Below, piece after piece: positions 4,556 to 24,924 of a stretch of 64,000 bases of DNA. Made by a program: the position numbers and the translations under genes. This DNA comes from a virus. Within the stretch, counting starts at the first letter, position 1, and each line of letters starts with the position of its first letter. The notes below the pieces were generated by a model. That model had not been told where the DNA came from, did not search any database, and was given only the letters and a program-made list of their open reading frames with translations. The stretch lies in IMG/VR virus record IMGVR_UViG_3300045988_085064; one strand, 5' to 3'.

Positions 4556-4648
4556 GGCGGTGTCGGTTAATGGTAAGCCAGCGGTCTTATAAACCGTTTA
4601 GCTCTAGATTGGGGCAAAATCAGAGTTCGACCCTCTGCGCCGCTACCA
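4556..4648 (+). tRNA. atypical class-II (long variable arm) tRNA, formal anticodon UAU, CCA encoded
   Basis: Manual cloverleaf. Acceptor GGCGGTG/CGCCGCT, D arm GGTT-AATGGTA-AGCC, anticodon arm GCGGT-CTTATAA-ACCGT, 23-nt variable region, T arm CAGAG-TTCGACC-CTCTG, discriminator A plus CCA. Confidence 0.6.
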
Positions 4649-5335: not shown

Positions 5336-5420
5336 GCGGGATTGGTGGAATTGGCAGACACATCTGATTCAAGCTCAGATGCCGTAAGGCGTAGGGATTC
5401 GAGTTCCCTATCCCGCACCA
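5336..5420 (+). tRNA. tRNA-Leu (anticodon CAA)
   Basis: Canonical class-II cloverleaf. Acceptor GCGGGAT/ATCCCGC, D region GTGGAATTGGCAGACAC, anticodon arm TCTGA-TTCAAGC-TCAGA, long variable arm, T arm AGGGA-TTCGAGT-TCCCT, ACCA end. Confidence 0.9.
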
Positions 5421-6477: not shown

Positions 6478-6506
6478 TTGACAAATTGTCGCTATGGTGC
6501 TATACT
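6478..6506 (+). promoter_or_regulatory. sigma70-type promoter (P5)
   Basis: TTGACA 6478-6483, 17-nt spacer, TGcTATACT. Confidence 0.7.
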
Positions 6507-9094: not shown

Positions 9095-10464
9095 CAGATA
9101 AAGGCTGTAAAAAGCCATATATTCATTTCTTGTCAAATGCCGCAGTTGACGTAACTGGCTCTTGTCATCATGTGCGATTCAAAAAATATAGCATCCTCCT
9201 AGATTGTGGCATGATACAGGGGATGGGAGATATTGTATCTAACTATAAGGCTAATCTTGCACAACTAAAAAAGATTAAACCAAGGGATGTAGATTTTATT
9301 GTATTGGGGCATAGCCATTTAGATCATATTGGGCTTGTTCCTGCATTATATGCTAAAGGATGCAATGCGCATCTCTATGTGCCATCTGGCTCTACTAATT
9401 TTCTCAAATTGTTATGGGAAGATAGCCTAAAAATCATGCGATCTGATTGTCTGAAAATTCAGAATAAGCACGGACAGAAAGCTGCGCCATTCTATGACGA
9501 ACAAGCTATTGAACGTGCGCTTAATCGCATTATAGAGATTGATTATAACATACCAATCTCGCTTGCACCAGACATTAAATTGACATATTATCCAGCCGGT
9601 CATATTATCAATTCGGCGCAATGCGTACTTGAGCTAAAAGATGGATATGTGACTAAGCGCATTGGTTTCACTAGTGATATTGGTGGTGTATCTGAAAAAC
9701 CGTACAAAGCGCGTAGACAGCCGTTGCCATTTGTTGATGTTCTTATCTCTGAATGCACATATTGCCAACAGGGGCGACCCAACAGCCACAAGGATAGAGA
9801 TAAGGATATTGAGAAGATTAAGACGGTTATTGCTGAATCCAATAAAATACTAATCCCATGTTTTTCTCTTGACCGAACACAATCTATGTTGCGCCTATTA
9901 CATGATAAGGGTATTGATAAGCAAATCAAAATTTATCTTGATTCCCCTCTTGCATCTAAATTCTGTGCAATCTGGCCGTGGGAAGAAGATGAAATTGAGA
10001 ATGTGCGAATTGTTGAATCTCAAGAAGAATCAGTTAATCTACAAATGCGAAATGAGCATTGCTTAATCATAAGTGCATCAGGCTTCCTTGTCGGAGGCCG
10101 GATTATGAGTCATCTAAAAACGGCTCTGCCTGATAGTTGCAATCATATCTTATTCTGCGGCTTTGCTGGGGAAAATGGACTTGCGTCTCAAATTAAATCC
10201 AATATGCCAGAGGTCAATATTGATGGCGTGAATGTAGCGAACAAAGCCAATATCACAGAACTGCGCTCATTTAGTAGCCATGCTAGTTATGAAGAATTGA
10301 TTGACTACTTAACAAATCAATGCCGTTTCAATAAACTATGCTTAGTGCATGGGAACTATGAGAACAAAGTAGAATTTTCTCATACATTACAAGATGAGCT
10401 AATAAAACAAGGTAAATCAAGTAGAGTAGTATGCACTCAACAAGATCAGCGAATTTATTTGTAA
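9091..10464 (+). CDS. MBL-fold / beta-CASP-type metallo-nuclease
   Basis: HxHxDH motif (LGHSHLDHIGLVP). 457 aa, a length typical of RNase J/CPSF/SNM1-like enzymes. TTG start. Confidence 0.8.
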   Translation: MTDKGCKKPYIHFLSNAAVDVTGSCHHVRFKKYSILLDCGMIQGMGDIVSNYKANLAQLKKIKPRDVDFIVLGHSHLDHIGLVPALYAKGCNAHLYVPSGSTNFLKLLWEDSLKIMRSDCLKIQNKHGQKAAPFYDEQAIERALNRIIEIDYNIPISLAPDIKLTYYPAGHIINSAQCVLELKDGYVTKRIGFTSDIGGVSEKPYKARRQPLPFVDVLISECTYCQQGRPNSHKDRDKDIEKIKTVIAESNKILIPCFSLDRTQSMLRLLHDKGIDKQIKIYLDSPLASKFCAIWPWEEDEIENVRIVESQEESVNLQMRNEHCLIISASGFLVGGRIMSHLKTALPDSCNHILFCGFAGENGLASQIKSNMPEVNIDGVNVANKANITELRSFSSHASYEELIDYLTNQCRFNKLCLVHGNYENKVEFSHTLQDELIKQGKSSRVVCTQQDQRIYL

Positions 10465-10480
10465 AATTAAATAAACCCTC

Positions 10481-10509
10481 TTGACAACCGCTCTAATCTA
10501 TGATATAAT
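10481..10509 (+). promoter_or_regulatory. consensus promoter (P6) with SD-complementary spacer
   Basis: TTGACA 10481-10486, 17-nt spacer, TGaTATAAT. Positions 10484-10493 are complementary to 10528-10537. Confidence 0.65.
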
Positions 10510-10520
10510 CCAAGTATCAA

Positions 10521-10826
10521 ATGAAAGGGGCGGTTGTTATTATAAAATTCTGTTTGAACATCACGTCGATTGGTTATCCATTTTATGTAGAGGCGATTAA
10601 CAAGTATCCTTGTCTTGTGGATGAAAAGTATAAGATGTCCACGACGCGAGTATGGAACAAGGACAAAAGCATTGTGCAGAATATTACATATATTGACATT
10701 TCATCTATAGCTAAACTAAAAGAACTGATTGATGAAACAGGACATGATGTTATAATTGCACCACCACGCAAGTGGCGCGACAAGAAGCATTATGAGCTTG
10801 AAATTTATGATGATTATAGGGAGTAA
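10521..10826 (+). CDS. hypothetical protein (ends ...YELEIYDDYRE)
   Basis: 101-aa ORF. The start is uncertain: ATG 10521 would be almost leaderless from P6, and an in-frame ATT at 10539 follows a GGGG-rich SD-like site. Confidence 0.5.
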   Translation: MKGAVVIIKFCLNITSIGYPFYVEAINKYPCLVDEKYKMSTTRVWNKDKSIVQNITYIDISSIAKLKELIDETGHDVIIAPPRKWRDKKHYELEIYDDYRE

Positions 10827-10832
10827 GTAATT

Positions 10833-11475
10833 ATGACCACTAAAAAATTGTATGACATTATCAAAGCATGGCGTGATTCCTGTGATACTGCCGGGTTGTA
10901 TCTAATTGTCAAGGATATGGATACTACACTGAAGCAGCTTGAATCTGATATGCTCATTGAGCAATCAAAGAAATCTGGTACTAAATCCATTGTGACTGCG
11001 GCGAATAGGATTATTAAAAAACGCTGAATCGCGCAATAAGCCTATGCTTGAAGGTATGTTTACCAATCAGACAAGAGATGGATTAACGCTATATTGTGTA
11101 TGTGATAGCTTTGTAGCTATTAGATTCAACGAAAAGCCGCTCCTGCCTGAGATTGATGAAAAATATCACGGATAGGAAATGCAGCTTGAACAGATTGTTA
11201 AGTTTATGGACGGCTCTAAGGAAATTAAGCTGCCTAATATTGGCGAACTCAAGGTATATATCAAGACGCATAAAATTAAAGAAAAGGATAATCCTAAGAA
11301 AGTGGCTGATTATCTGCTTGATGAGGAATTAAATCTGTAGATAAATCCACAGTATTTACTTAATACTATGGAATGTCTGCCTGATTGTAAGGCGTATGCG
11401 GCAAATAGAATCAGTCCGATTTATTTCAAGGCAGAAAATGGTGATGGCGTGGTTATGCCGGTAAATCATCAATAA
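10833..11475 (+). pseudogene. sliding-clamp-like gene, disrupted or recoded (one frame change at an A6 tract, two in-frame TAG)
   Basis: Frame 0 runs 10833-11027. Frame +1 is open from 10996 to TAA 11473-11475 except for TAG codons at 11173 and 11338. Motifs KPMLEGMF...LYCVCDSFVAIRF and NPQYLLNTME...SPIYFKAENGDGVVMPV recall DnaN-type clamps (recalled from memory). Confidence 0.4.
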
Positions 11476-11489
11476 GGAGGAATAAAAAG

Positions 11490-11810
11490 ATGGAATATAA
11501 TATTGGAGACATCATAAAGTTCAAAAATGAAGCCGGTGTATTTCAGGTTGAGATTAAGAGTGAGATTCCAACAATAGATGCTATTCAAGGATTTGCTGAC
11601 GATATGATTTTTGAAGGCAAAATGCGGTTTGAAGTACACCACAGAGACTATGGAGAATATATTATTACCATGACAAGCCGTGAAGAATCCAATGATACGG
11701 GTAAAATTATCGTATGTTTGCTTGATACTTGTAATGATGAGGTTGAATATTATCTTGGACAGATTATTCAGTATGAAGATGAAGAAGATGTATTTGAGTT
11801 GATGAAGTGA
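11490..11810 (+). CDS. hypothetical protein
   Basis: 106-aa ORF with a TAAGGAGGA SD. Confidence 0.5.
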   Translation: MEYNIGDIIKFKNEAGVFQVEIKSEIPTIDAIQGFADDMIFEGKMRFEVHHRDYGEYIITMTSREESNDTGKIIVCLLDTCNDEVEYYLGQIIQYEDEEDVFELMK

Positions 11811-14800
11811 TGAATACAAACTATACAATCCTTCACCTTCATTCTATGCTATCTAATGGCGTAACCAACATAGATTCTGTGACGCGCTACGACCAATATA
11901 TAGACCGCGCCGCAGAGTTAGGGATGAAGGCAATAGCATTTTCTGAACACGGGTCAATTTTTCAATGGGTAAAGAAAAAATTGCATACTGAAGAAATGGG
12001 TATGAAATATATCCATGCTCAAGAATTTTATCTAACTCAGACCTTGGATGAAAAAATCCGTGATAATTACCACTGTCTGTTAATTGCTAAAAATTATGAT
12101 GGCATATTAGAGCTGAACAAGTTATCAAGTAAGGCATTTAACCGTGACGATAATTCATTTTATTATGTACCGCGAATCACGATTGATGACGTAAAGAATA
12201 CCAGTGATAATATCATTGTATCTACAGCTTGTCTTGGCGGCGTATTGAACAAAGCACCAGATGATGTTCGATGGGATTTCTACCATTGGCTATGTGAGCA
12301 TAGAGACAGATGTTTTCTTGAGATTCAGCCCCATCTTGACCCCGCTCAAAAGAGCTATAACAACACGCTATGGGCACTATCTAAACAAAGCGGCTTGCGG
12401 CTATTGATGTGTACTGATACTCATGCGCTCAATTCTACTCATGTAGATGGGCGACGCATCCTACAAAAAGCCAAGAATATTCATTTTGACGGTGAAGATA
12501 AATTTCATCTTGAAATGATGAGCTATGATGAGTTAGTGCAACTATGCTGCATGCAAGACGCGCTACCTATAGATGTGTACTTGGATGCTATTGAGATGAC
12601 AAACACGGTAGCAGATATGATTGAACCGTTTGAGCTTGATTATAGCTATAAATATCCTCATCTATGGGGTGATGATAGTGAGGCTGTGCTTAGAGATAAG
12701 ATCGCAGACGGTATTATGTGGCGCGGTGTTGATAAGCTGCCTAATTATCAAGAATACCTAGATCGCATCGAATACGAGATGAAAGCATATATCCATAATA
12801 GCGCGATTGACTTTATGTTGCTCATGGAGGACATCATAGCATGGTGCAAGACACAGGGTATTCTTGTGGGATATGGGCGCGGCTCATGTAATGGCTCAGT
12901 CATTGCTTATCTGCTTGGAATTACTGAGATGGATAGCATCAAGCACGGGCTTAATTTTGAGCGATTCATGAATACGGAGCGTGTATCACTGTCTGATATT
13001 GATACAGATTTTCCTCCTAGTAGAATCAATGAGGTCAAGCAATATATATTTAACAAACACGGATTACACTGTTCTGACATTGTAACATTTAATACGATTG
13101 CTCTGAAGGGCGCTATTCGTGATGTTGGTAGAGCGTTGGAAATGCCACTTGATGAAGTAGGGCAAATCTGTAATACCGTAGAACAAGATGAGCACAAATG
13201 CCGCACTAAATATCCAGAGCTATTCAAATATGTCGATATTGTAAATGGTTGCGTTGTATCAGTTGGCAATCATCCTTGCGGCTTAGTTGTATCACCTCAT
13301 TCTATTGATGACCGTATGGGGCTATTCACCACATCAACAGACGATGTTCCAATCAGTCAAATTAATATGAAAGAGGTTGATTTGCAGAATTATGTCAAGC
13401 TAGATTTACTCAAACTAGACACCATTGAACTAATCAACGAGACGTGTAAATTAGCTGGTATTGAGCGCCTAACACCTGACAATGTTGATATAAATGATAA
13501 AGTCGTGTGGGATAGCATTAGAGATGATACTACGGCTATATTCCAGTGGGAAGGCATGACTGGCGATAGATATATCAAGCAACTCTTGTCTGAATCTAAT
13601 ATTCAGAAATTCAAGGCATTGAACCCAAATATTGACTATATGACATTGCTATCAATCGGTAATGGCGCAATTCGTCCTGCCGGTGCATCATATCGTGATG
13701 ACCTTGCTAATGGTGTTATCCGCAAATCTGGAAATGCGGCGATTGATGAATTTATGAAGCCGACATTTGGCTATCTTGTATTCCAGTGTCAAATTATTCA
13801 ATTCTTACATGAATATTGTGGCTATACTATGGGCGAAGCCGATGTTGTGCGCCGCCATTTTGCTAAAAAGACTGGTACAGACAAGGATATACCACAAATC
13901 AAGGCTGGTTTTGCTGAGACAATGGCAGAGCGATATAATATGAGCCAAGATGAATCAGATAAGGTTATAGCTGATTTTATCCAAGTCATTATCGACGCTA
14001 GTAATTATCTGTTCTCTCTAAATCATAGTCAGCCATATAGCTATGAGGGATATGTATCAGGTTGGCTTAGATACCACTATCCACTTCAATTCCTTACGGT
14101 TGCTATGAATATCAATCAAGGTAAAGAGGAAAAGACGGCGGCACTAACGGCATATGCTCATAAAGTCGGCATTAAAATTAAATCTCCTAAATTTCGTCAT
14201 TCTCGCTCAGATTATTTTTACGATATAAACGAAAATACAATCTATAAGGGGCTTGGCTCAATCAAGTATATGAGCACCGATGTAGCCGAGGCATTATATG
14301 GTATGCGCGATATGCAGTTTAAGAATTTTATTGATGTGCTATTTGCTATTCAACAGCTCAACTCTAAACCAGATGCGCGGCAACTTGATATTCTAGTTAA
14401 AATTGGTTATTTTGCAGAATTTGGACCAGCCAAGGCACTATTGCTAGGTATTGAGATTTTTAATAAATTTTCAAAATGCAAGACAATTAAACTTGACAAA
14501 TGGGTTGGAATGGGTTATAATGTAGATATGCTCAAGCCGTATGCTGGTAATCTAACAGAGAAAACAGCTAGTCAACTTGATAATCGCGGCATCATATTAT
14601 CGATTCTGCGCTCAATGAAAATGCCAAAGACAACTATTGCTGATAAACTGAAATGGCAGATTGAGTTATTAGGCTATGTGGATGGCAACGACCCCAATTC
14701 AGACCTTAATGATTGGCTAGTGCTAGATGTTAAGACAACAGGATATGGTACGATTTATTGTATGCTTTATAACCTATGCTATGGCGCAGAACGCACATAT

Positions 14801-14968
14801 CGAGCTAATAAGAAATTCTGGACAAATCATCAATTATCAAAGGGTGATGCAATTAGAGTTGTATTGCAAGAGAAAAATAAAATGAAAAAGGATGAAAATG
14901 GTGAATGGGTAACATTATCGGAAACGTATCAGGAGATGAAAGTGTGGAAGAAGCATGAAGAAATGTAA
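11807..14968 (+). CDS. dnaE: DNA polymerase III alpha subunit (DnaE-type, N-terminal PHP domain)
   Basis: 1053 aa. PHP motif ILHLHSMLSNG...AFSEHGS, and GYGRGSCNGSVIAYLLGIT typical of Pol IIIalpha. Confidence 0.9.
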   Translation: MMNTNYTILHLHSMLSNGVTNIDSVTRYDQYIDRAAELGMKAIAFSEHGSIFQWVKKKLHTEEMGMKYIHAQEFYLTQTLDEKIRDNYHCLLIAKNYDGILELNKLSSKAFNRDDNSFYYVPRITIDDVKNTSDNIIVSTACLGGVLNKAPDDVRWDFYHWLCEHRDRCFLEIQPHLDPAQKSYNNTLWALSKQSGLRLLMCTDTHALNSTHVDGRRILQKAKNIHFDGEDKFHLEMMSYDELVQLCCMQDALPIDVYLDAIEMTNTVADMIEPFELDYSYKYPHLWGDDSEAVLRDKIADGIMWRGVDKLPNYQEYLDRIEYEMKAYIHNSAIDFMLLMEDIIAWCKTQGILVGYGRGSCNGSVIAYLLGITEMDSIKHGLNFERFMNTERVSLSDIDTDFPPSRINEVKQYIFNKHGLHCSDIVTFNTIALKGAIRDVGRALEMPLDEVGQICNTVEQDEHKCRTKYPELFKYVDIVNGCVVSVGNHPCGLVVSPHSIDDRMGLFTTSTDDVPISQINMKEVDLQNYVKLDLLKLDTIELINETCKLAGIERLTPDNVDINDKVVWDSIRDDTTAIFQWEGMTGDRYIKQLLSESNIQKFKALNPNIDYMTLLSIGNGAIRPAGASYRDDLANGVIRKSGNAAIDEFMKPTFGYLVFQCQIIQFLHEYCGYTMGEADVVRRHFAKKTGTDKDIPQIKAGFAETMAERYNMSQDESDKVIADFIQVIIDASNYLFSLNHSQPYSYEGYVSGWLRYHYPLQFLTVAMNINQGKEEKTAALTAYAHKVGIKIKSPKFRHSRSDYFYDINENTIYKGLGSIKYMSTDVAEALYGMRDMQFKNFIDVLFAIQQLNSKPDARQLDILVKIGYFAEFGPAKALLLGIEIFNKFSKCKTIKLDKWVGMGYNVDMLKPYAGNLTEKTASQLDNRGIILSILRSMKMPKTTIADKLKWQIELLGYVDGNDPNSDLNDWLVLDVKTTGYGTIYCMLYNLCYGAERTYRANKKFWTNHQLSKGDAIRVVLQEKNKMKKDENGEWVTLSETYQEMKVWKKHEEM
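14493..14521 (+). promoter_or_regulatory. perfect consensus promoter inside the dnaE coding sequence (P7)
   Basis: TTGACA 14493-14498, 17-nt spacer, TATAAT 14516-14521. No TG extension. Confidence 0.4.
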
Positions 14969-15161
14969 AGGATTCTGTGCAAATGAATGTGTGACCGGAT
15001 ATTGCCCGATTGCGCTTGATAGGAAATACGATTGGTATAGTGATATGGGATATGATGTGCCAAAGAACTGCAAAGAATGTTACTACAATACATTTAATTG
15101 TGCAGATTGCATTTTCCAAAAATCAAAATATTGTATAAAATTAGAGGGGGGCGTAAAATAA
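14955..15161 (+). CDS. Cys-rich hypothetical protein
   Basis: 68-aa ORF overlapping the dnaE end. Confidence 0.5.
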   Translation: MKKCKGFCANECVTGYCPIALDRKYDWYSDMGYDVPKNCKECYYNTFNCADCIFQKSKYCIKLEGGVK

Positions 15162-15520
15162 TGGATGCTGTTGAATTTTTGAAACAGCTTAATTGAATGT
15201 GTAAAGCATACAACGATGATGGATGTAAGGAATGTCCTGCTTATGGGTATCGTTGCGGAGAAGAATTTGATGGACAAGAAGAAGATGGTGTTTTTATTGT
15301 AGAACAATGGGCAAAAGAATACCCGGTCAAAACGAGGCAGAGCGAATTGCTCAAGCTATTTCCTAAAGCTAATATGCTATATGATGGATATCTAAGTATT
15401 TGCCCAGCTCAAATTTCAAGTGAATATCGTGATAAGGAAACTGGTGGATGTGGATGTCGTACCCCCGGAATAGGTTGTGATAAATGCAAACGTAATTTTT
15501 GGCTAAAAGAAATTCAATGA
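15161..15520 (+). CDS. Cys-rich protein with in-frame TGA at codon 12
   Basis: A GAGGGGGG SD precedes ATG 15161 (TAATG coupling). The sequence reads MDAVEFLKQLN-TGA-MCKAYNDDGCKECP... in one frame. No SD precedes ATG 15197. Confidence 0.45.
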
Positions 15521-15525
15521 GGTGA

Positions 15526-15690
15526 ATGATGACCAATCAAGAAGCTTCCACATTGATAGTTAAGGAATATGGTAATTATAGAGGACTTTGCATTGAATAC
15601 AAACAATTTTCTTATATCAACCCAAATCTATCTGAAGCTATTGCTATGGCTGTAGCAGCATTAAGTAAAGAAAATAATAAGGAGGATTAA
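15526..15690 (+). CDS. hypothetical protein (54 aa)
   Basis: TGAGGTGA SD, then ATG 15526. Below the track cutoff. Confidence 0.35.
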   Translation: MMTNQEASTLIVKEYGNYRGLCIEYKQFSYINPNLSEAIAMAVAALSKENNKED

Positions 15691-15698
15691 GTAAGTAA

Positions 15699-16367
15699 AT
15701 GGGCGTAGCAGTTCTTATTTTAGGTGAAAGTGGCTCTGGTAAATCAGCGTCACTTAGAAATTTCAAGCAAGAGGATGTTGGCATCCTAAATGTAGCATCT
15801 AAACCGCTACCATTCAGAAATGTAAATAAACTACAAAGTATGAATAAAGCAACATATGCCAGTATCAAAGGCGCGGTATGTAGCGGCAAAAAGCTAAGTT
15901 GGGTCGTAGACGATGCTCAGTATCTTATGGCTTTTGAGAGCTTTGATAAAGTAAATGAAGTCGGATATGGCAAGTTCACTACGATGGCTAAGAACTATGA
16001 AGATATGTTGCGTGTTGTTCAGGAAGATACAAATCCAGATACGATTGTATATATCATGCAACATATTGATACCGATGAAAATGGCAAGGTAAAGGCTAAG
16101 ACGCTTGGCAAGATGCTAGACCAGCAGCTCACAGTAGAGGGACTGTTTAGCATTGTCCTGCTATGTAAAGCTGATGAGCGCAAGCATTATTTTATCACAC
16201 AGTCTGACGGCTCGAATCCATGCAAGTCTCCAATGGGTATGTTTGATTCTCTTGAGATTGACAATGACCTAAAGATGGTTGATGATACAATCAGAGAATA
16301 TTATGGGCTAAAGAAGGCAAGTGCGCCAAAGGCTAAACCTACTACTCCAGCTAAAAAGGCTGAGTAA
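15699..16367 (+). CDS. P-loop ATPase (Sak4/AAA_24-like recombination ATPase)
   Basis: Walker A LILGESGSGKSAS. 222 aa. Sits beside an SSB-like gene. Confidence 0.7.
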   Translation: MGVAVLILGESGSGKSASLRNFKQEDVGILNVASKPLPFRNVNKLQSMNKATYASIKGAVCSGKKLSWVVDDAQYLMAFESFDKVNEVGYGKFTTMAKNYEDMLRVVQEDTNPDTIVYIMQHIDTDENGKVKAKTLGKMLDQQLTVEGLFSIVLLCKADERKHYFITQSDGSNPCKSPMGMFDSLEIDNDLKMVDDTIREYYGLKKASAPKAKPTTPAKKAE

Positions 16368-16383
16368 GATATAAAAATAATAC

Positions 16384-16412
16384 TTGACAAATATATGGCA
16401 ATGTGATATAAT
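16384..16412 (+). promoter_or_regulatory. consensus promoter (P8)
   Basis: TTGACA 16384-16389, 17-nt spacer, TGaTATAAT. Followed by a roughly 90-nt hairpin-rich leader. Confidence 0.65.
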
Positions 16413-16514
16413 ATAGTAGAGGTCAAAGCTGGGTTGCAAACTGGCTTAGTTTAAGAGGGTTGCCTATATCAGCCCTCTACTCTAAATAAATCTTATATAG
16501 GGAGATTGATAAAG

Positions 16515-17084
16515 ATGCACAAAACTCATAATATGTCAAATACGAGAATATATCGAATTTGGAGCGATGTTAAGGCAAGATGTTATTATGTTGGCAATGA
16601 TAATTATAAATATTATGGTGAACGTGGCATAGCAATGTGTGAGGAATGGAAGGATTCATTTGAAAATTTCTATAATTGGGCAATTAGTGCTGGATATAAT
16701 GATGATTTGACATTAGATAGAATTGATACGAATAAAGGATATTACCCAGCTAATTGTAGATGGATAACCTTGACTGAACAATGTAGAAATAGGCGAAATA
16801 ACGTAAGATATAAATATAATGGTGAAGAAAAAACATTAAAAGAATGGGAAGAAATTTATGGAGTTCCTTCGGCAACATCTTGGGCACGTATAAATAAATA
16901 TGGTTGGGATGTTGCAAAAGCTATTACATATAATGAAGAAGAATTATATGAATACAATGGGAAATCTCAAATATTATCTGATTGGGCAACTGAATTAGGT
17001 ATAAAATATACAACTTTAAGAGCTAGAATAAAGGCATATAAATGGCCTATAGAAAAAGCATTTAACACAAAAACATTAAAGTGA
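16515..17084 (+). CDS. free-standing homing-endonuclease-like DNA-binding protein (AP2/HNH-associated family)
   Basis: TRIYRIWSDVKARCY...YYGERGIAMCEEW...LTLDRIDTNKGYYPANCRWIT is the pattern commonly annotated HNH/AP2 homing endonuclease in phages. Confidence 0.65.
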   Translation: MHKTHNMSNTRIYRIWSDVKARCYYVGNDNYKYYGERGIAMCEEWKDSFENFYNWAISAGYNDDLTLDRIDTNKGYYPANCRWITLTEQCRNRRNNVRYKYNGEEKTLKEWEEIYGVPSATSWARINKYGWDVAKAITYNEEELYEYNGKSQILSDWATELGIKYTTLRARIKAYKWPIEKAFNTKTLK

Positions 17085-17094
17085 GGTAATCAAA

Positions 17095-17718
17095 TTGAAA
17101 AGAATTGAAAATTGGGACTCTATCGTTGAAAGCACGTCTTTTAAGCGTCTAACACCAAATGGCTATATTTGTAAGATTTTGAAGGTGGAAGATCATCCTG
17201 AGAAAGAATATCTAAAGATTTATTTTGATATTTTCAAGGGCGATGACAAGGGATATTTCAAGAAGCAGTATGATGGAGATACACGCAAGGAAAAGAAATG
17301 GCCTAATGCTGGCACATTCATTCGCTCTTATAAGGATAGTGCGGCATCTATGTTCAAGGGCTTTACCAATGCTATTGAGCGTTCAAATAAGGGCTATCAG
17401 TGGAATTTTGATGAAAAGACACTTGTCAATAAGATCATTGGTCTAATCATTGCAGATGAGCAGTATCAGAACCAGAAGGGTCAGGTTCGTGTCCGTAACT
17501 ATGTCGCGGCTGTTCGCTCTGTTGAAACCATTGAAAAGGGCGAATATGAAATTCCTGCGCTAAAGGAACTAACAACCACTAAGACTACTACATCTACTCC
17601 TGCTAATGACCCACTACCTGATTTTGGGGATGTGTTCAATACTACGTCTACTGATACGTCTACTCCTGCTGAATCAGAAAATCCTTGGGATGATTCCGAC
17701 GAGAATCCATTTAGCTAA
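17095..17718 (+). CDS. putative ssDNA-binding protein (DUF669-like) with acidic C-terminal tip
   Basis: TTG start after GAGGTAA. The C-terminus NPWDDSDENPFS resembles SSB tails. Lies next to the Sak4-like ATPase. Confidence 0.55.
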   Translation: MKRIENWDSIVESTSFKRLTPNGYICKILKVEDHPEKEYLKIYFDIFKGDDKGYFKKQYDGDTRKEKKWPNAGTFIRSYKDSAASMFKGFTNAIERSNKGYQWNFDEKTLVNKIIGLIIADEQYQNQKGQVRVRNYVAAVRSVETIEKGEYEIPALKELTTTKTTTSTPANDPLPDFGDVFNTTSTDTSTPAESENPWDDSDENPFS

Positions 17719-17732
17719 TCTATAAAAATATT

Positions 17733-17765
17733 AAAGGCGGGGCTTGACAATCCCGCCTTTTTATT
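17733..17765 (+). terminator. rho-independent terminator with a promoter -35 in its loop
   Basis: AAAGGCGGG (17733-17741) pairs with CCCGCCTTT (17752-17760), then a T run. The loop is GCTTGACAAT. Confidence 0.7.
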
Positions 17766-17772
17766 ATATAAT
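17744..17772 (+). promoter_or_regulatory. consensus promoter (P9)
   Basis: TTGACA 17744-17749, 17-nt spacer, TATAAT 17767-17772. Confidence 0.6.
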
Positions 17773-17791
17773 AGCTGTGAGGTGATGATGT

Positions 17792-18421
17792 TTGAATAGA
17801 TTTCTATGTATATCCCAGCTACAAGAGCTGCGAATCGACATATATCAGACCCACATGAAAGCCAGATTCAGTGTCATCACCAACAATCAATGCCTCACAA
17901 TGAGCCAAACATTAAGCCGCAAATGGAATGAGGCGCAAATCAAATCATGGCTGGGTATGGCGCAATATATCCATCCACGAATAGACAGCTATATATATGT
18001 CAAAAATAAACATTATTATACAATGAAAAAATCTGATATACCTACTAGACTATTGGTATCAGGCAATATCAACGAATGGAAAAAATCATTGTATTATAAT
18101 GTACAATATTGCCGCATAATTGAAGATAATACGGCTGATAGCATGAATATAGAAATGGATGGGCAATGGGTCGATTCGAGCCGATTCCTGAACATATGCG
18201 GCGATTCACCTAGGGTATTTAATATTAAGTGTCCTGACGGCTGTGAGGGCTGTGTATGCCGATTGCGGCTTGAATATGATGCAGGATATAGCATAGAGCA
18301 AAATCGGGTTATAACGCATCCTAGCGGTATTAGAGTGGTTGATTGTAAGAGGATAGATGCGGCTATGAGCCAAGAAGAAATTGATAAGTGGATGTTAGAA
18401 TATGAGATAATTTCCTCTTGA
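17792..18421 (+). CDS. hypothetical protein
   Basis: 209-aa ORF. TTG start after GAGGTGA. Confidence 0.5.
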   Translation: MNRFLCISQLQELRIDIYQTHMKARFSVITNNQCLTMSQTLSRKWNEAQIKSWLGMAQYIHPRIDSYIYVKNKHYYTMKKSDIPTRLLVSGNINEWKKSLYYNVQYCRIIEDNTADSMNIEMDGQWVDSSRFLNICGDSPRVFNIKCPDGCEGCVCRLRLEYDAGYSIEQNRVITHPSGIRVVDCKRIDAAMSQEEIDKWMLEYEIISS

Positions 18422-18446
18422 CAACCTCCTATTTCTATGCTATAAT
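18418..18446 (+). promoter_or_regulatory. consensus promoter (P10) with SD-complementary spacer
   Basis: TTGACA 18418-18423, 17-nt spacer, TGcTATAAT. Positions 18421-18430 are the perfect complement of 18465-18474. Confidence 0.65.
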
Positions 18447-18480
18447 TAAGTCAACAAATGAAACAGGAGGTTGTTTTATT

Positions 18481-18618
18481 ATGACTTGGAAAGTATGGTT
18501 TGATGGTGATGAATGCCAGAACGTGATTATTGTTCAGTGTGATTCTTTTGATGAGGCAATTAAATATGTACGAACGATTGATGAACGGTATGACACAGCA
18601 CAGGTGGTAAGCAAATGA
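18481..18618 (+). CDS. hypothetical small protein (45 aa)
   Basis: ATG 18481 follows AGGAGG (18465-18470). Track start 18418 is the promoter -35 itself. Confidence 0.5.
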   Translation: MTWKVWFDGDECQNVIIVQCDSFDEAIKYVRTIDERYDTAQVVSK

Positions 18619-19097
18619 GAAAGCCACCTACAATTAAATGCCGCCAATGCGGTAAATCAACGTTAAAACAAAATGCAATTGAATATAAGCCTAAATTCTA
18701 TTTTTGTTGTGAACAATGCAAGCAAGATTATATCAATACTCATACTGCTAAGTCAAAGCCAGAATCAAAAGATGATAGGCGCAAATTGTTAGATTATATA
18801 CGTCAAATCTCCCCTGATGCCAATATGCGGCTTGTAGGTATACAGCTTGCTCAGTTAATGAAAGATAATCCTGATATGACATGTGGCGGCATTGCTTATA
18901 CCATTAGATATATCCATAAGGAGCAAGGATTGGATATATCTAAATCACCACTTGGACTGGTCAAATATAAATATGATGAATGTAAAAAATATTATACTTG
19001 GCTAAATCAGGTAAAGCAGAATATACAGCAATGGAAAGCTGAAGATGGGGTTGAGACGATTATGAAAAGAAATGATGAGGAGGATGTGTTTGGATGA
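18615..19097 (+). CDS. zinc-ribbon protein
   Basis: N-terminal CRQCG...CCEQC motif. 160 aa. Confidence 0.55.
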   Translation: MRKPPTIKCRQCGKSTLKQNAIEYKPKFYFCCEQCKQDYINTHTAKSKPESKDDRRKLLDYIRQISPDANMRLVGIQLAQLMKDNPDMTCGGIAYTIRYIHKEQGLDISKSPLGLVKYKYDECKKYYTWLNQVKQNIQQWKAEDGVETIMKRNDEEDVFG

Positions 19098-19312
19098 TTT
19101 TAATTGAATACTATCCGGGATATGATATTGGCTATGACGCTACTAAGATGTATGTTGATATTTCAAGTATTCAATATATTACTTATACTTATGTCAGAGG
19201 GCATAAGTATCTAGTTATTGGACTCAATGGGGAATCTTTTACTCTAACAGATGAGAGTGGCAAGGATTTGTTGGGTATCATGGGATTGTCTAAGGAGGAT
19301 TTGATGTCATGA
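19094..19312 (+). CDS. hypothetical protein
   Basis: 72-aa coupled ORF. Confidence 0.5.
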   Translation: MILIEYYPGYDIGYDATKMYVDISSIQYITYTYVRGHKYLVIGLNGESFTLTDESGKDLLGIMGLSKEDLMS

Positions 19313-19560
19313 AACAATATGTCAATGAATATGATGAAGCTCTCAATGCTCTAACTAGCGGTATGCTTGATACAAGTGATATTGAGCCATATATGGGTGC
19401 TATTGTTGGAGCATTGCAGAAACAAATCCCCATATATGCGGTTGGTGTGCGCTCATCTGGATTGTACAAAGATAGTGGCATTTGCCAGTTATGTGGTAAT
19501 GATGTCAACTCATATATGCAATATTGTGAATGTTGTGGGCAAGCGTTGAAATGGAAATGA
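19309..19560 (+). CDS. hypothetical protein with C-terminal zinc ribbon
   Basis: 83 aa, with CQLCGN...CECCG. Confidence 0.5.
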   Translation: MKQYVNEYDEALNALTSGMLDTSDIEPYMGAIVGALQKQIPIYAVGVRSSGLYKDSGICQLCGNDVNSYMQYCECCGQALKWK

Positions 19561-19670
19561 TAATGTGTCCATATAAAGATGGTGCTAAATGTACCGCTCC
19601 TGATACAGATTGCCTGCATTGGCAAGGCACATTTTGTGAATTAGATGAATCGAGCAAGGAGGAATAATCA

Positions 19671-21143
19671 TTGCTCTATGACCAAAATTCTGTTAGGTTG
19701 CTATTGGGTTGTTTGCTAATTAAGTCGTCTCTTGCTATTTCCGACAAGTATCCTTTAAGCCGTGATGATTTCACGGTCGATTTCCATCTCAGATTGTGGC
19801 AAGGGTGCGTTGCTCTAGCTAAACGTGGGGCTGAATCTATATCTGCCCTAGACCTCTATATGCTATGTAAGAATAATAAGCAGGTAGAGGATATATTCAA
19901 GTTAAATCAGCTAGACGATTTTATTGATACTGTTAAGCAACTTGCTAATGTGGGCAATTTTGAGGTATATTACAACAATGTGCGCCGCGCAACATTACTC
20001 CGTTCATATAAAAATGCTGGCTATAACGTAGACAAATTTGAGCAAGACGATAAAGCAACCATAGAAGATATAGTACAATATTTTGACGCACAACAGATAG
20101 CTATAAAGAAGCAATTCTATAAAGACAAAGATATAGATGAGCTAAAAGCCGGTGATGGATTTGAGGCGGTTAAAGAGGGTTTCAAAGCAGAACCGCTATT
20201 CGGCGCAACAACTTTTAGTGAATATCTAAACACAGCTGCTAGAGGTTGGATTCCGGGACAGCTATCTATCTATTCAGTCGGCTCAGGTGTAGGCAAGTCA
20301 ACTATTGGCTTGGCTAATCTTGTGCAAGTATGTTGCCCTAGAATCTATGATATAGACAAGGGGCAATATGTAGATAATCCATGTTATCAGCATAAGGCTG
20401 GTCTATATCTTCAATTTGAGATGGCTGGTGATACTGAAATCACGCCCAAGATTGTGGCTACAATTAGCGGCGTACCATGTTTTAGCATCTTAAATGGGCG
20501 ATATGAAGAAGGTGAAGAAGAACGTGTAGATGAGGCTATTAAAATCCTGCATGAATCTAAGCTATATATTGTCACCATGCCTAATTATACTGTTGATTTG
20601 ATTGAATCATATGTAAAGGATTATGTGGTAAATAAGCAAGTAGGCTTTCTATGTTATGATTATATCGTTGAATCATCATCCGTATCGAGTGACCTAGCTA
20701 AAAAGAACGGCGTATCTACTCGTTCAGATCAGGTGCTATCTGGTATAGCAAGTAAGCTCAAGGATTTAGCTGTTGAATATAATATAGCAGTACTTACATT
20801 TACTCAGGTCAATGCTAATGCTATGACGCAAGAAATTATGGATAGTGGTGTTGCGGCTGGTTCAAGAGCGATTCAGAACAAGGCTGATGTGGCCGGTGTA
20901 ATTATGCCTTTGCGCCGTAAAGAGCAAGAGATAGCTGATATGATGATGGAGAAATATCCTGATAAAACAAAGCCAAATCGCGTGCTGCATCTCTATAAAA
21001 TGCGCTTTTCACAGGTTGAACAGGGTATTAAGATATATTTTAATCTTGACTTGAATACTGGACGAACAAAGGATTGTTTTGTAACGAGCAAGTTCGACAA
21101 TCCAATACAGCTTCAAAGAACAAGGTTGGTGTATGCGAAATGA
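19671..21143 (+). CDS. dnaB: replicative DNA helicase (DnaB family)
   Basis: 490 aa. Walker A SVGSGVGKSTIGLAN. RecA-like C-terminal domain. TTG start after AAGGAGGA. Confidence 0.85.
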   Translation: MLYDQNSVRLLLGCLLIKSSLAISDKYPLSRDDFTVDFHLRLWQGCVALAKRGAESISALDLYMLCKNNKQVEDIFKLNQLDDFIDTVKQLANVGNFEVYYNNVRRATLLRSYKNAGYNVDKFEQDDKATIEDIVQYFDAQQIAIKKQFYKDKDIDELKAGDGFEAVKEGFKAEPLFGATTFSEYLNTAARGWIPGQLSIYSVGSGVGKSTIGLANLVQVCCPRIYDIDKGQYVDNPCYQHKAGLYLQFEMAGDTEITPKIVATISGVPCFSILNGRYEEGEEERVDEAIKILHESKLYIVTMPNYTVDLIESYVKDYVVNKQVGFLCYDYIVESSSVSSDLAKKNGVSTRSDQVLSGIASKLKDLAVEYNIAVLTFTQVNANAMTQEIMDSGVAAGSRAIQNKADVAGVIMPLRRKEQEIADMMMEKYPDKTKPNRVLHLYKMRFSQVEQGIKIYFNLDLNTGRTKDCFVTSKFDNPIQLQRTRLVYAK

Positions 21144-22192
21144 TTGACATTCAATCTCTCAAATCCCAACTAACCGATGACCGCATTATAGAGCTAATGG
21201 ACGCTATGGGTGCGCCATTAATGAAGGCTGATAGTAATAATTTGATATTCGGCTCAATTTGTCATTGGGGTGCTGATTGGGATAAACACAAGCCCAAATT
21301 ATGGTACTATATAAAATCAGGTTCATTTCACTGTTGGAGCTGCGGCTTTTCAGGCGATACCATATCTCTAGTTCAGTACGTCAAGCATCTTGACTTCAAT
21401 CAAGCTGTATCATATATCTGCTCAATCCTACATCTACAAGTAGGGCAAATAGAACAGAATGGGCAGATTGATAATTGGGCTGAATTGCGCCGATTCTTAC
21501 CTAATGCTGAGCCAGAGCCAGACAAGCTATTGACATATGACAAGTCCATATTATCTCTATTTGACCATTTATATCCGCAAGAATGGCTGGATTATGGTAT
21601 TTCAGCGGATATACTTGATAAATTTGGTATAGGCTGGTATGCGCGTCAGGCGTGCATATCAATACCTGTCGTGTTTAATGGACAACTAGTAGGTGTAAGG
21701 GGGCGATATACAAGAGAGCAGGATGTGGTTAAAGGCAAATATAGACAAATATGTACGCTGGATGGTACAGTGCTAAAGCTGGCAACATCACAAGTCATGT
21801 ATGGCTACGACCAAAATAAAGCCGCTATTGAAAAGTCGCGTCAAGTGGTGCTATTTGAATCAGAAAAAAGCGTACTCAAGTCGCCCAAATACGGTATAAA
21901 TAATGCTCTAGCCGTCTTTGGCTCTAATATAAGCAAGCAGCATATACAACTATTGCTAGAGCTGGGCGTGAATGATGTGGTGCTTGCGTTTGATAGCGAT
22001 TATAAGCAAGTAGGCGATGAGGAATTTAAGTTCTTTGTAGTCAAGCTGAAGAAATTAGCGGTTAAGTTAAAGCCTTTCTTCAACTGTTCGATAGTCTATA
22101 ATAATCAAGGTTATGATATGTATAAATGCAATATGATGGACATACCATATGAGCAAGCAATGAAATTATGGGAAAGTAGGGTAAAAATATGA
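21140..22192 (+). CDS. dnaG: DNA primase (zinc-finger + TOPRIM)
   Basis: ATG 21140 overlaps the dnaB stop. CHC2-type zinc finger FHCWSCGFSGDTISL. TOPRIM-like VVLFESEKSVL...VLAFDSD. Confidence 0.8.
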   Translation: MIDIQSLKSQLTDDRIIELMDAMGAPLMKADSNNLIFGSICHWGADWDKHKPKLWYYIKSGSFHCWSCGFSGDTISLVQYVKHLDFNQAVSYICSILHLQVGQIEQNGQIDNWAELRRFLPNAEPEPDKLLTYDKSILSLFDHLYPQEWLDYGISADILDKFGIGWYARQACISIPVVFNGQLVGVRGRYTREQDVVKGKYRQICTLDGTVLKLATSQVMYGYDQNKAAIEKSRQVVLFESEKSVLKSPKYGINNALAVFGSNISKQHIQLLLELGVNDVVLAFDSDYKQVGDEEFKFFVVKLKKLAVKLKPFFNCSIVYNNQGYDMYKCNMMDIPYEQAMKLWESRVKI

Positions 22193-22488
22193 GTAAACCA
22201 GTTATGGAAAAATTTCTGAATGGAGAAAAGCTAACAGAAGAAGATCGCTCTAATTTAGCATGGGGTTTTCTTGATGATGAAGGATATGAATATGTAGACC
22301 AAATTGATGGCGCATCTGGTAGATGGACACAAGAGACGCAAACTGTGTTTAAATATAATGGTGAATATTGGGCTATTGACTGGCGCTTTGGTTTAACTGA
22401 ATATCAAGAAAATGAATATCCGTCAAATCCATATCGTGTTGAGCGTAAAGAACGTGTTGTTACTGTTGTGGATTGGGTGAGAGTATGA
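22189..22488 (+). CDS. hypothetical protein
   Basis: 99-aa coupled ORF. Confidence 0.5.
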   Translation: MSKPVMEKFLNGEKLTEEDRSNLAWGFLDDEGYEYVDQIDGASGRWTQETQTVFKYNGEYWAIDWRFGLTEYQENEYPSNPYRVERKERVVTVVDWVRV

Positions 22489-22611
22489 GAGGCAAATGTA
22501 AGTATGCGCATGAATGCCGTTATCAGCGATATGTGGACGGAAAATAGCGCACTGTGGTTAGAACAGAATGTTGGGCTACCAAAGAGCCGTTTATAAGGAG
22601 GCTGATTTTTT

Positions 22612-24288
22612 ATTAAGATTCATCCACTACTTGGTTCCCTTAATGAAGCCACATTTTTAAGGGATTTACTTCATACCTACGGCATATCTGATATTGACGC
22701 ATATCTAAATCCAGATAAGATTGAATATCAATCGCCCGATATGTATAAGAATATGGATGTGGCTGTGAATCTATTCAATCATACCAAAGGCTCTGTTGGT
22801 ATTGTTATTGATAGTGATCTTGATGGAGCTTGTTCGGCGGCTATTGCCTATATGCTATGTATTGAGAACGGGCTAGAGGACATTCGTATTTATAGTCATG
22901 CTGGTAAAGAGCATGGGTTATCAGACCTAACAGGTCAAATCACCATTGATGAATTAGATTTGTTAATTGTGCCAGATGCCGGGTCGAACGATATATATCA
23001 ATGTGAAGAACTGATGTGTATGGGTATTGATGTTATAATCTTAGACCATCACATCATTGAGAAGTCAAATAAGTATGCTACAGTAGTCAATCCATATAAT
23101 AGTGCTATTATTCGACCAATGCCAGATGACCAAATGGAGTCAATCGAACACAAATATTGGGGCGTTGGTGGCGATGTCACATACACTTGTAATGCCGACA
23201 TCAGTGGCACAGGCGTTGTAGAAAAATTTGCTTGTGCACTTGGCTCTAAGCAATCTTTCAAAGACCTAGTAGCTGTTAGCCTAATCTCTGATATTTGCAA
23301 TTTGCGCTCACTTGAGAATCGCAAATATGTATATGACGGATTGACTAATCCTACTAATCCATTTATCAAATACTGCCTAGAGCATTGTTGCAATCGCGGC
23401 GTTAATCCAGAGGGTGTGGCATTTGGGATAGCGCCTCTTGCTAATGCGCTTGCTCGTAGCGATGACCAGTCTACTAAGCGGCTATTCTTTGATGCGCTGA
23501 TTGGCAAGATTGAGCCAGAAGCCGCAGTAAAGGCTATGAAAGCCGTAAAATCTAAGCAGGATTATCAAGTCAAGAAGGTCGTAGATAAGCTGTCTGATGG
23601 ACTTGACACATCTCATAAGGTCATTATCGGCTTTGGTGAACCTGAGAATAAGTCCTATTTAGGGCTTGTAGCCAATAAATTCTGTGGAAAATACAATAAG
23701 CCGACATTCCTATTGAGAGAACTAAATAGCACAACATGGTCTGGCTCGATGCGTAGTCCTATTGATTTACTTGAGATTATCAATAAATCAGGATTGGCTA
23801 AATGTCAAGGACATGGCGCCGCAGCTGGCATAACCGTCAAGAAAAGCAACTTAAAGAGATTTGCACGATTCTTAGACGGGCTTGATTTGGACGTAGAGCC
23901 AGATATTGAGGTGGCGGCTCAGATCGCGCCTAATAATATCACACACAATCTTGCAAATCTGTGTGTAGAAAATAATATTCTATGGGGTCAAGGTGTACCG
24001 AAGCCGCTATTCCATCTAACCCTATCATCCCCTCAAATCTATATCTATCGTAATCGCTCAACTACTGTCAAGTTGATTCAGGATGATGTTGAGTTCATTA
24101 AATTCTTTGTTAGTAATGAAGAGGCAAGCCAATTTGAATCAGCTCAAGGTAAATCTATTGAGGTGGTAGTATCGCTTGGATTGAATGAATATAATGGACA
24201 GATTAAGCCACAAGCAATTATTGAGCTATATGAAATTATTGATAAACCAAATGATAATGAAATTGATTGGGAGGTGATTTTCCACTAA
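22612..24288 (+). CDS. DHH-family phosphoesterase / RecJ-like exonuclease
   Basis: Motifs DSDLDGACSAA, VPDAGSND, LDHH and GHGAAAG. Conserved-looking sequence extends upstream of ATG 22741 to a stop at 22603. The only plausible start after AAGGAGG is ATT 22612. Confidence 0.75.
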   Translation: MKIHPLLGSLNEATFLRDLLHTYGISDIDAYLNPDKIEYQSPDMYKNMDVAVNLFNHTKGSVGIVIDSDLDGACSAAIAYMLCIENGLEDIRIYSHAGKEHGLSDLTGQITIDELDLLIVPDAGSNDIYQCEELMCMGIDVIILDHHIIEKSNKYATVVNPYNSAIIRPMPDDQMESIEHKYWGVGGDVTYTCNADISGTGVVEKFACALGSKQSFKDLVAVSLISDICNLRSLENRKYVYDGLTNPTNPFIKYCLEHCCNRGVNPEGVAFGIAPLANALARSDDQSTKRLFFDALIGKIEPEAAVKAMKAVKSKQDYQVKKVVDKLSDGLDTSHKVIIGFGEPENKSYLGLVANKFCGKYNKPTFLLRELNSTTWSGSMRSPIDLLEIINKSGLAKCQGHGAAAGITVKKSNLKRFARFLDGLDLDVEPDIEVAAQIAPNNITHNLANLCVENNILWGQGVPKPLFHLTLSSPQIYIYRNRSTTVKLIQDDVEFIKFFVSNEEASQFESAQGKSIEVVVSLGLNEYNGQIKPQAIIELYEIIDKPNDNEIDWEVIFH

Positions 24289-24479
24289 TGTATATCGCAA
24301 AGAGGCACATCAAACAGGCCATCATGGAGAATGGTGGAAATGCCACATTTGACAAGATTGCTGATTGGACTGAATATGAGTGTATCAATCTGAATGCCCG
24401 TATCAATGAGATGGTAAATAATGGCGAGCTGGTCAGACGTGACAATAGATATTATTTGAAAGGAGAAAGAAGAAATTGA
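24288..24479 (+). CDS. hypothetical small protein
   Basis: ATG 24288 overlaps the upstream stop. Confidence 0.45.
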   Translation: MYIAKRHIKQAIMENGGNATFDKIADWTEYECINLNARINEMVNNGELVRRDNRYYLKGERRN

Positions 24480-24655
24480 GCAGAGCAGAAAGAAATCGTC
24501 GCAAACGGACTGAGCATCCCCTAAAATATGCTCCTATCAAATGTCCAAATTGCGGCTTAATGGTAGATGAAAAATATGTAGTTGACATAAATTCTACTTG
24601 TCCTATTTGTGGCAGAGAGCTATTTGCAGAGTTAAAGAAAATGATTGAAAAATAA
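24476..24655 (+). CDS. zinc-ribbon protein (59 aa)
   Basis: TTG 24476 overlaps the upstream TGA. Contains CPNCG...CPICG. Below the track cutoff. Confidence 0.4.
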   Translation: MSRAERNRRKRTEHPLKYAPIKCPNCGLMVDEKYVVDINSTCPICGRELFAELKKMIEK

Positions 24656-24667
24656 TTAAAATAATGC

Positions 24668-24696
24668 TTGACAACCTCTTGTTACTATGATATACT
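24668..24696 (+). promoter_or_regulatory. sigma70-type promoter (P11) with SD-complementary spacer
   Basis: TTGACA 24668-24673, 17-nt spacer, TGaTATACT. Positions 24671-24683 pair with 24710-24722. Confidence 0.65.
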
Positions 24697-24729
24697 TGAT
24701 TTATCAAAGAACAGGAGGTTGTTTTAATT

Positions 24730-24921
24730 ATGAAACGGGTAAAAGGTTCTATCTACGTCAGAGCATTAGGTGAATATAATTGGGAATTTTATGTACCAGA
24801 CGATGCGACAGATGACGAAATTAGAGAACAAGTTGAAGAAATCTGTAACTATGATATTGACTATACTGTAGAAGAGGGATATGAAGAGTACACTGAAACG
24901 CGCTATAGAAAGAAGTGGTGA
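24730..24921 (+). CDS. hypothetical acidic small protein
   Basis: ATG 24730 follows AGGAGG (24713-24718). Confidence 0.5.
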   Translation: MKRVKGSIYVRALGEYNWEFYVPDDATDDEIREQVEEICNYDIDYTVEEGYEEYTETRYRKKW

Positions 24922-24924
24922 CAA

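Follow-up and report, generated by a model that had tools for sequence, protein, structure and literature searches.

Promoter cassettes complementary to their own Shine-Dalgarno region in a viral genome: a candidate lock on read-through RNA

The closest described relatives of the arrangement reported here come from phage T4 and the T4-type phages. The ribosome-binding sites (RBS) of the T4 genes e, soc, 49 and I-TevI are sequestered in long early transcripts, whereas a second promoter, located immediately before the RBS, yields RNA devoid of the 5′ part of the structure; lysozyme synthesis from the long transcripts is 100-fold lower (PMC3014915). In the PeSL (promoter-early stem-loop) elements of T4-type phages, a conserved motif of ~100 bp unites a sigma-70 early promoter, a stem-loop and a Shine-Dalgarno (SD) sequence, and marks the points at which ORFans are exchanged (PMC2839356, PMC4122927). 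The PeSL stem-loops are compact terminators whose place may be ahead of the promoter boxes, between them, on top of them or shortly before the transcription start, and their termination was demonstrated by reporter assay in the original work (PMC2839356). Here we describe a 64,000-nucleotide stretch of viral DNA, IMG/VR record IMGVR_UViG_3300045988_085064 (the window), in which three host-type promoters, designated P6, P10 and P11, each belong to a small cassette whose −35 and spacer are complementary to the SD region of the same cassette. This complementarity may withhold the SD from ribosomes in RNA that reads through from upstream, and leave it accessible in RNA that begins at the cassette's own promoter.

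The three cassettes share a single layout (Table 1). Each −35 is a perfect TTGACA followed by a 17-nt spacer, and each −10 is TATAAT or TATACT with a TG extension in front, so that all three promoters are of the consensus sigma-A type. The 5′ arm starts at the ACA of TTGACA, or at its G if the closing G·U pair is counted, and the 3′ arm ends 3–8 nt upstream of the start codon. Between the arms lie 24–34 nt, such that the helix encloses the −10 and the predicted transcription start, taken as ~7 nt past the −10. An exact search of the window finds TTGACAACC at these three sites and nowhere else, and the regions upstream are AT-rich (AAAATTAAATAAAC and similar), as in PeSL promoters. The arm pairs were verified in the window sequence where the first-pass annotation had placed them, and the helices are even longer than it stated: 15 nt with 93% complementarity in P10 (18421–18435 with 18460–18474), 13 bp in P6, and 14 bp plus inner pairs in P11. 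Inner pairs bring P6 and P11, with interruptions by internal loops, to about 20 bp; an inner helix is absent from P10, whose 15 bp, one mismatch included, close an open loop of 24 nt.

The two RNAs that such a cassette could give rise to differ sharply in predicted structure. Read-through RNA carrying both arms folds in silico at −24.6, −18.9 and −27.4 kcal/mol in the three cassettes, with z-scores of −6.2, −3.2 and −7.0 relative to dinucleotide-shuffled sequences. When it begins at the predicted start, the RNA attains only −3.7, −7.0 and −8.1 kcal/mol, which is not better than its shuffles. The promoter geometry indeed places the 5′ arm outside RNA that begins at the predicted local start, as had been proposed.

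Each cassette may thus be viewed as a copy of a portable expression unit in which a consensus sigma-A/sigma-70 promoter of host type, preceded by AT-rich DNA, is joined through a short leader to an SD, and whose promoter spacer has very probably been selected for complementarity to the SD region of the same cassette. RNA entering from the upstream co-directional gene would contain both arms and form a helix of 10–16 bp that buries the SD, leaving the first cassette gene untranslated from read-through RNA. RNA from the cassette promoter, provided that it fires at the predicted start, would begin between the arms, lack the 5′ arm and keep its SD free, so that expression of the ORFan in the slot would depend on the cassette's own promoter alone. 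If a structure as stable as −19 to −27 kcal/mol forms across the SD, it must strongly cut 30S binding, and SD occlusion is therefore the default consequence. Read-through itself is plausible because all hairpin cassettes stand directly behind a co-directional open reading frame (ORF), with no canonical terminator upstream of P6, P10 or P11 and only one + strand terminator detected in 6–26 kb. With moderate confidence, we consider such a lock on read-through RNA the most likely effect of the helix; it would belong to the cassette, and in this respect modifies the proposal of the first-pass annotation, in which the next small gene was the object of control.

Comparative evidence for the helix comes from relatives found through their proteins, a megablast of 10–25 kb against known phages having given no match. 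The DnaE-type polymerase is nearest to that of Clostridioides phage pCD1602_4 (49.8% amino acid identity), followed by Tsamsa-like Bacillus siphoviruses (about 42%), and IMG/VR contains many close and moderately distant relatives, mostly from one metagenome. A scan of these relatives yielded 58 distinct cassette sequences. In an alignment of 23 distinct promoter-to-SD segments over a 15-bp helix, 90.3% of the cells are paired, as opposed to 35–58% after the 3′ partner is slid by 1–3 columns; seven pairs show changes on both sides, and the observed values are reached by 0–1 of 500 shuffles. The six outer pairs (ACAACC/GGTTGT) are forced by the search pattern and hence uninformative, and the signal resides in the nine inner pairs. 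RNAalifold independently predicts the same helix.

A search free of the ACAACC/GGTTGT anchor extends the family. It recovered types such as AAATCAACCTCTTTAT/ATAAGGAGGTTGATTT, ACAAACCTCCTCTTG/CAAGAGGAGGTTTGT and ACAACCTCTGTT/AACGGAGGTTGT; the pairing TTGACAAATCAACCTCTTTAT...ATAAGGAGGTTGATTT amounts to 16 bp with one G·U and has the variants AATCAGCCTCCTT, AATCAACCTCCTT and AAATCAACTTCTTTAT, and TTGACAAACCTCCTCTTG...CAAGAGGAGGTTTGT to 15 bp. Further types form perfect helices of 15 bp (L042) and 13 bp (L095), or 15 bp with two G·U (L060). Altogether some 10 arm variants, including P6, P10 and two P11 subtypes, keep the helix via compensatory changes, and the SD falls within the 3′ arm in every one of them. 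The earlier claim that the stems covary while the layout is conserved is thereby borne out: complementarity is kept in homologous and paralogous cassettes of related phages. The internal mismatches of the family helices, in a manual count of events not based on a tree, comprise about 14–15 G·U, 1–2 A·C and two others. Because a transition in a Watson–Crick pair produces G·U and A·C with equal probability, the excess of G·U indicates selection on + strand RNA, as opposed to DNA or RNA of the other strand. From these sequence comparisons it appears very probable that a + strand RNA helix is under selection. Promoter helices coupled to an SD are absent from two more remote phages in culture, pCD1602_4 and vB_BcoS-136, so that neither offers an experimentally tractable example; vB_BcoS-136 carries a compact, PeSL-like hairpin over a −10 as well as a 16-bp promoter-spanning repeat without an SD. 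Rfam, searched with the window at the gathering threshold, returned two tRNAs only and no family over the cassettes.

The same data bear on an action at the level of DNA, whereby the repeat would bind a protein as a symmetric operator, extrude as a cruciform, or serve as a recombination signal for moving the cassettes. The cassettes do form mosaic junctions that are conserved above their flanks, and the outer six pairs, ACAACC/GGTTGT, are invariant in many types. The inner arms nevertheless change and stay complementary, which is unexpected for a protein-binding site, and G·U mismatches far outnumber A·C, as befits RNA of one strand and not DNA. Moreover, other types have different outer sequences (AATCAACC, ACAAACC), and no recombinase gene is linked to the cassettes. 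A role in DNA is thus very improbable, and a protein operator specifically was rejected on covariation together with the G·U bias.

Could the complementarity be a functionless accident, arisen once by chance and passed on whenever the cassette was duplicated? P6, P10 and P11 are paralogues with a common TTGACAACC...GGTTGT, the identity among the relatives' cassettes is so high that much of their conservation is uninformative, and at the corresponding locus of one relative a cassette without the hairpin is in use. Such an origin is nonetheless hard to reconcile with some 10 arm variants whose inner sequences differ and are all complementary, the anchor-free types included, with the skew of mismatches to G·U, and with two background controls. 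When the spacers and leaders of 123 promoter types are paired crosswise, the mean duplex energy is −7.1 kcal/mol (standard deviation 3.1), and −15 kcal/mol or lower is reached in only 1.7%, a figure inflated by cross-pairs among related hairpin cassettes; the window cassettes score about −18 to −24 kcal/mol in the same scheme. Furthermore, a scan of 185,579 bacterial and archaeal (GTDB) genomes for the pattern TTGACAACC-N14-TATAMT-N10-30-GGTTGT returned 100 matches; past the six forced bp, 65 of these have no further pair, 17 have one and five have two. These counts are near random expectation, and the bacterial matches show no extended pairing, whereas in the phage relatives pairing always continues 4–10 bp beyond the forced six. 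No family cassette, which might have served to identify a host, is among the 100 matches. We consider a chance origin highly unlikely.

The cassettes are positioned at mosaic junctions, as islands of ~80 bp on the 5′ side of hypervariable ORFan slots. Early and replication genes occupy the + strand at 1–32.5 kb, where eight promoters match all 12 consensus positions, and converge on a minus-strand block of long ORFs at 32.8–64 kb that we took, by analogy with vB_BcoS-136, to be structural genes. The P6 island is 95–99% identical to 13 related loci with flanks that are 68–89% identical or absent, and this identity persists even where the protein encoded upstream has diverged to about 52% identity. 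A gene of ~200 bp lies upstream of P6 in most relatives, not in the window, and the gene downstream is itself absent from four relatives (L005, L006, L008 and L011). Of 24 loci related to P11, 23 lose homology at 24726–24736 and regain it at 24922–24924. The P6 type is followed by at least five different genes and the P11 type by at least eight, the 63-aa gene of the window being one of the latter, and the slot genes after the cassettes have no Pfam or PHROG match.

Table 1. Positions of the cassette elements, slot genes and a neighbouring promoter-overlapping terminator in the window
Feature	Position	Strand	Sequence, content or basis
P6 cassette	10463–10543	+	81-bp conserved island: AT-rich upstream region, promoter, leader, SD
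P6 promoter	10481–10509	+	TTGACA, 17-nt spacer, TATAAT, TG extension; 12/12 consensus positions
P6 5′ arm	10482–10494	+	UGACAACCGCUCU; upstream of predicted start; minimum-free-energy fold, covariation
P6 3′ arm	10527–10539	+	GGGGCGGUUGUUA; SD GAAAGGGG inside; minimum-free-energy fold, covariation
P6 arm core	10484–10493 with 10528–10537		ACAACCGCTC with GGGCGGTTGT; one G·U
First gene after P6	10542–10826	+	ORFan; no Pfam or PHROG match
PeSL-like neighbour	17733–17772	+	Canonical terminator hairpin; loop = −35 of promoter 17744
P10 promoter	18418–18446	+	TTGACA, 17-nt spacer, TATAAT
P10 5′ arm	18420–18435	+	GACAACCUCCUaUUUC; complementarity, fold, covariation
P10 3′ arm	18460–18475	+	GAAAcAGGAGGUUGUU; SD inside; complementarity, fold, covariation
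P10 arm core	18421–18430 with 18465–18474		ACAACCTCCT with AGGAGGTTGT
45-aa ORFan after P10	18481–18618	+	Absent from L001–L004, L012, L013
P11 promoter	24668–24696	+	TTGACA, 17-nt spacer, TATACT
P11 5′ arm	24670–24692	+	Outer helix 14 bp plus inner pairs; predicted fold
P11 3′ arm	24702–24723	+	SD AACAGGAGGUUGUU inside; predicted fold
P11 arm core	24671–24683 with 24710–24722		ACAACCTCTTGTT with AACAGGAGGTTGT; one G·U
63-aa ORFan after P11	24730–24921	+	In hypervariable slot

The first-pass annotation had also held that the 3′ arm covers the SD of the next gene. This stands for every type in the family, but the start of the P6 gene had been mis-assigned to 10521. Positions 10542–10544, directly behind the SD spacer, read ATA in the window and ATG in all relatives that bear the gene (L010, L024, L058, L066 and L078), and the ATG at 10521 lies about 4–5 nt from the predicted transcription start, within a leader motif (ATCAAATGAA) common to other cassettes. 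On these comparative grounds the true start is 10542, and with it the P6 3′ arm covers the SD of that gene. The ATA of the window could represent a start-codon mutation, a pseudogene or a sequencing error, or the in-frame ATG at 10521 could be used instead.

Two further observations concern start codons. The conserved leader motif CAAATGAA (18457–18483; also in the leaders of P6 and of a related cassette at 6478) includes an ATG that is probably incidental. In P10 this ATG opens an eight-codon frame (MKQEVVLL) that terminates across the main start codon (ATGA), whereas in cassettes of the P6 and 6478 types it shares the reading frame of the main start. Separately, many AATCAACC-type hairpin cassettes (L017, − strand, 756–860, and about 16 similar copies) have ATT at the normal distance after the SD, in frame with the downstream ORF; L019 and L042 have ATG at that position, and the ATT may be a non-canonical start.

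Several observations weigh against a simple lock on the SD in read-through RNA. Local and upstream promoters on the + strand at 1–32 kb are all of the host consensus type, so that no temporal switch is evident. At the orthologous P10 position of one relative (L006), where the upstream gene is identical through the −35 and the downstream gene is homologous, the cassette has no complementarity; a hairpin-less cassette before the same gene makes the hairpin a dispensable property of the cassette that is not gene-specific. Together with the swapping of ORFans in the slots, this takes ground from the earlier proposal of gene-specific control over the next small gene, and the interpretation of the first-pass annotation is, overall, partly supported. 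In P10, the stop TGA of the upstream ORF (18419–18421) falls within the −35 hexamer and abuts the 5′ arm, so that terminating ribosomes would open the helix and coupling could replace a simple block. The 10 nt past the SD contain 5.8 T in hairpin cassettes as against 3.2 in others, though for four of the 10 nt the base is dictated by the ACAA of the −35, with which they pair. Finally, in another phage group (L085, − strand, 3286; L041, + strand, 9986) a consensus promoter lies inside a 10–12 bp inverted repeat that is followed by T8–T9, with the SD and ATG of the next co-directional gene ~25 nt further on; this repeat looks like a terminator formed by upstream transcripts only.

Translational coupling was rejected as a general explanation, given that the stop abuts the 5′ arm in P10 only and that the gap is about 14–18 nt in P6 and P11.

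The composition of the tail and the L085/L041 repeats lend substance to a different function, that of a context-dependent terminator or attenuator, a PeSL-like insulator that would halt polymerase from upstream in the U-rich stretch shortly ahead of the start codon. A polymerase that initiates within the helix would make the 3′ arm only and read on, and the overlap with the SD would be a by-product of compaction. The PeSL stem-loops of T4-type phages are themselves terminators in or beside promoters (PMC2839356), and a canonical terminator of the window encloses the −35 hexamer at 17744. In cassettes of the P10, P11 and L060 types UUU (as UUU(U)A) comes after the helix, the tails are T-richer than in hairpin-less cassettes, and P6, P10 and P11 have no other terminator upstream, whereas the related hairpin-less cassette at 6478 has a canonical one in front. 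However, loops of 24–34 nt contrast with the 3–8 nt of this phage's canonical terminators, and the terminator scan made no call here; the P6 types have a poor U-tract (UAUUAUG, UGUUAUG or UGGUAUG); and all types of the family use the SD as the 3′ arm, a constraint that would not apply to a pure terminator. Termination or attenuation is the main rival of the SD lock, though less likely; these three points count against it as the sole function, and it may act jointly with the lock.

Two attempts to quantify terminators were set aside. Mutual exclusivity of hairpin and upstream terminator (0 of 15 hairpin types and 11 of 108 others have a terminator) is a trend short of significance, and the table is not used as evidence because the terminator finder missed imperfect stems, for example before promoter 6478. 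A d'Aubenton-Carafa-type terminator score was discarded, since the known terminators of the window came out negative too, an effect of the stem-boundary setting.

The terminator at promoter 17744 consists of AAAGGCGGGG-cttgacaa-TCCCGCCTTTTTATTA and contains the −35 of a perfect promoter; in relatives, units of this type precede several different downstream genes and show compensatory stem changes (GCCGGGG/CTCCGGC in L063). In L001 (17270–17310) the loop of a 17744-type terminator is inverted, with ATTGTCAAGC for GCTTGACAAT, as if the segment between the arms had been flipped. Promoter-spanning inverted repeats of 12–19 bp without an SD were also encountered in unrelated viral contigs (L032, − strand, 7944; L068, + strand, 279; L055, − strand, 7157), where they precede RNAs of ~60–70 nt with their own intrinsic terminator, next to a divergent or antisense gene.

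The length of the helices invites yet another reading, namely processing by RNase III or another double-strand-specific nuclease, which would part upstream from downstream RNA in read-through transcripts, or stabilization of the 3′ end of the upstream message. In its favour, the helices are intergenic and have 13–16 bp, to which inner pairs add in P6 and P11 for a total of about 20 bp, and Bacillus RNase III, as cited in PMC4838370, cuts early mRNA of phage SP82 at hairpins. P10, by contrast, has only 15 bp with a mismatch, no inner helix and an open loop; no cleavage-site features were identified in the cassettes, and a cut inside the helix would sever the SD. We judge nuclease processing or stabilization improbable.

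Two further sets of elements were noted in the early region. Two tRNA genes (4556–4645 and 5336–5417) each have a perfect promoter upstream (4424 and 5053). A second repeated unit at 16384–16480, present also at many other loci, among them L006 (15405), L008 (17876), L009 (16248), L011 (8971) and L013 (15464), consists in order of a perfect promoter, AGAGGT, a hairpin with a covarying stem, and TTTAAG(A/G)GG. The loop of its hairpin carries a 6-bp palindrome (TTGCAA, TAGCTA, TGCGCA or TGTACA). This unit has no Rfam match; it might represent a family of small RNAs or a leader with a defined structure.

If the lock on read-through RNA is real, the promoter/stem-loop cassette of mosaic ORFan shuffling and the RBS hairpin of long transcripts would be fused in one module of ~80 bp, in an unrelated phage lineage of Gram-positive-type hosts. 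The cassette, not the gene, would set the start of transcription, the start of translation and the insulation from upstream RNA, which would explain how small early genes can be swapped freely without disturbing the expression of their neighbours. A bolder and rather doubtful extension is that the slots are self-insulating and 'plug-and-play', with a mobile module bearing an anti-SD in its spacer, any ORFan that recombines into the slot expressed from the module's promoter alone, read-through RNA both locked and partly terminated at one helix, and the design general in a large group of uncultivated Firmicute phages. Such a cassette could also serve as a compact insulating part, or as a template for synthetic insulated promoter-RBS parts.

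Among known systems, intrinsic terminators and RNase III hairpins offer parallels. Like the promoter-overlapping terminator at 17744, the cassettes have an A-rich 5′ flank, a G+C core and a U-rich 3′ flank, and stand behind a co-directional gene. Unlike intrinsic terminators, they have a loop 3–4 times longer than in the phage's canonical ones, a weak U-tract in P6, and a helix that ends 3–8 nt before the start. As in the RNase III hairpins of SP82 and T7, the helix is intergenic and belongs to polycistronic early RNA made by the RNA polymerase of the host; the P10 helix is, however, shorter than two turns, and the link to a promoter and an SD is foreign to that family.

The cassettes share with the PeSL elements a consensus sigma-70-type promoter, an AT-rich upstream region and an SD and start codon at the 3′ end, and they too are repeated, conserved and placed at boundaries of ORFan insertion, deletion or replacement. 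The likeness to T4-type promoter–stem-loops that had been pointed out earlier therefore holds for behaviour at mosaic junctions (PMC2839356) and fails for the stem-loop, which is not compact. PeSL hairpins are compact and often have G/C tracts, whereas the cassette arms stand 24–34 nt apart, enclose the −10 and the start, and form with their 3′ member the SD of the transcribed leader; the host and phage groups also differ. In structure, promoter 17744 of the window is a closer PeSL analogue than the three cassettes.

The T4 genes e, soc, 49 and I-TevI furnish the other half of the comparison. As there, the SD lies in the 3′ arm and is paired in the long transcript, here according to the minimum-free-energy fold and covariation; transcripts of the cassette are predicted to start between the arms without the 5′ arm, and read-through transcripts to be translationally silent. 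In T4, however, the internal promoter is late and provides a temporal switch for one gene, whereas the cassette promoter is host-type and of the same class as those upstream. Furthermore, the cassette 5′ arm lies within the −35/spacer of the promoter itself, the cassettes are multi-copy and swappable and serve interchangeable ORFans, and the lineage is unrelated, the relatives being DnaE-encoding Tsamsa-like siphoviruses and not a T4-like myovirus. A search of the available literature for a sigma-A promoter cassette with a spacer complementary to its own SD found nothing relevant. The cassette brings together, within a single mobile module and outside the T4 lineage, two paradigms already familiar from T4.

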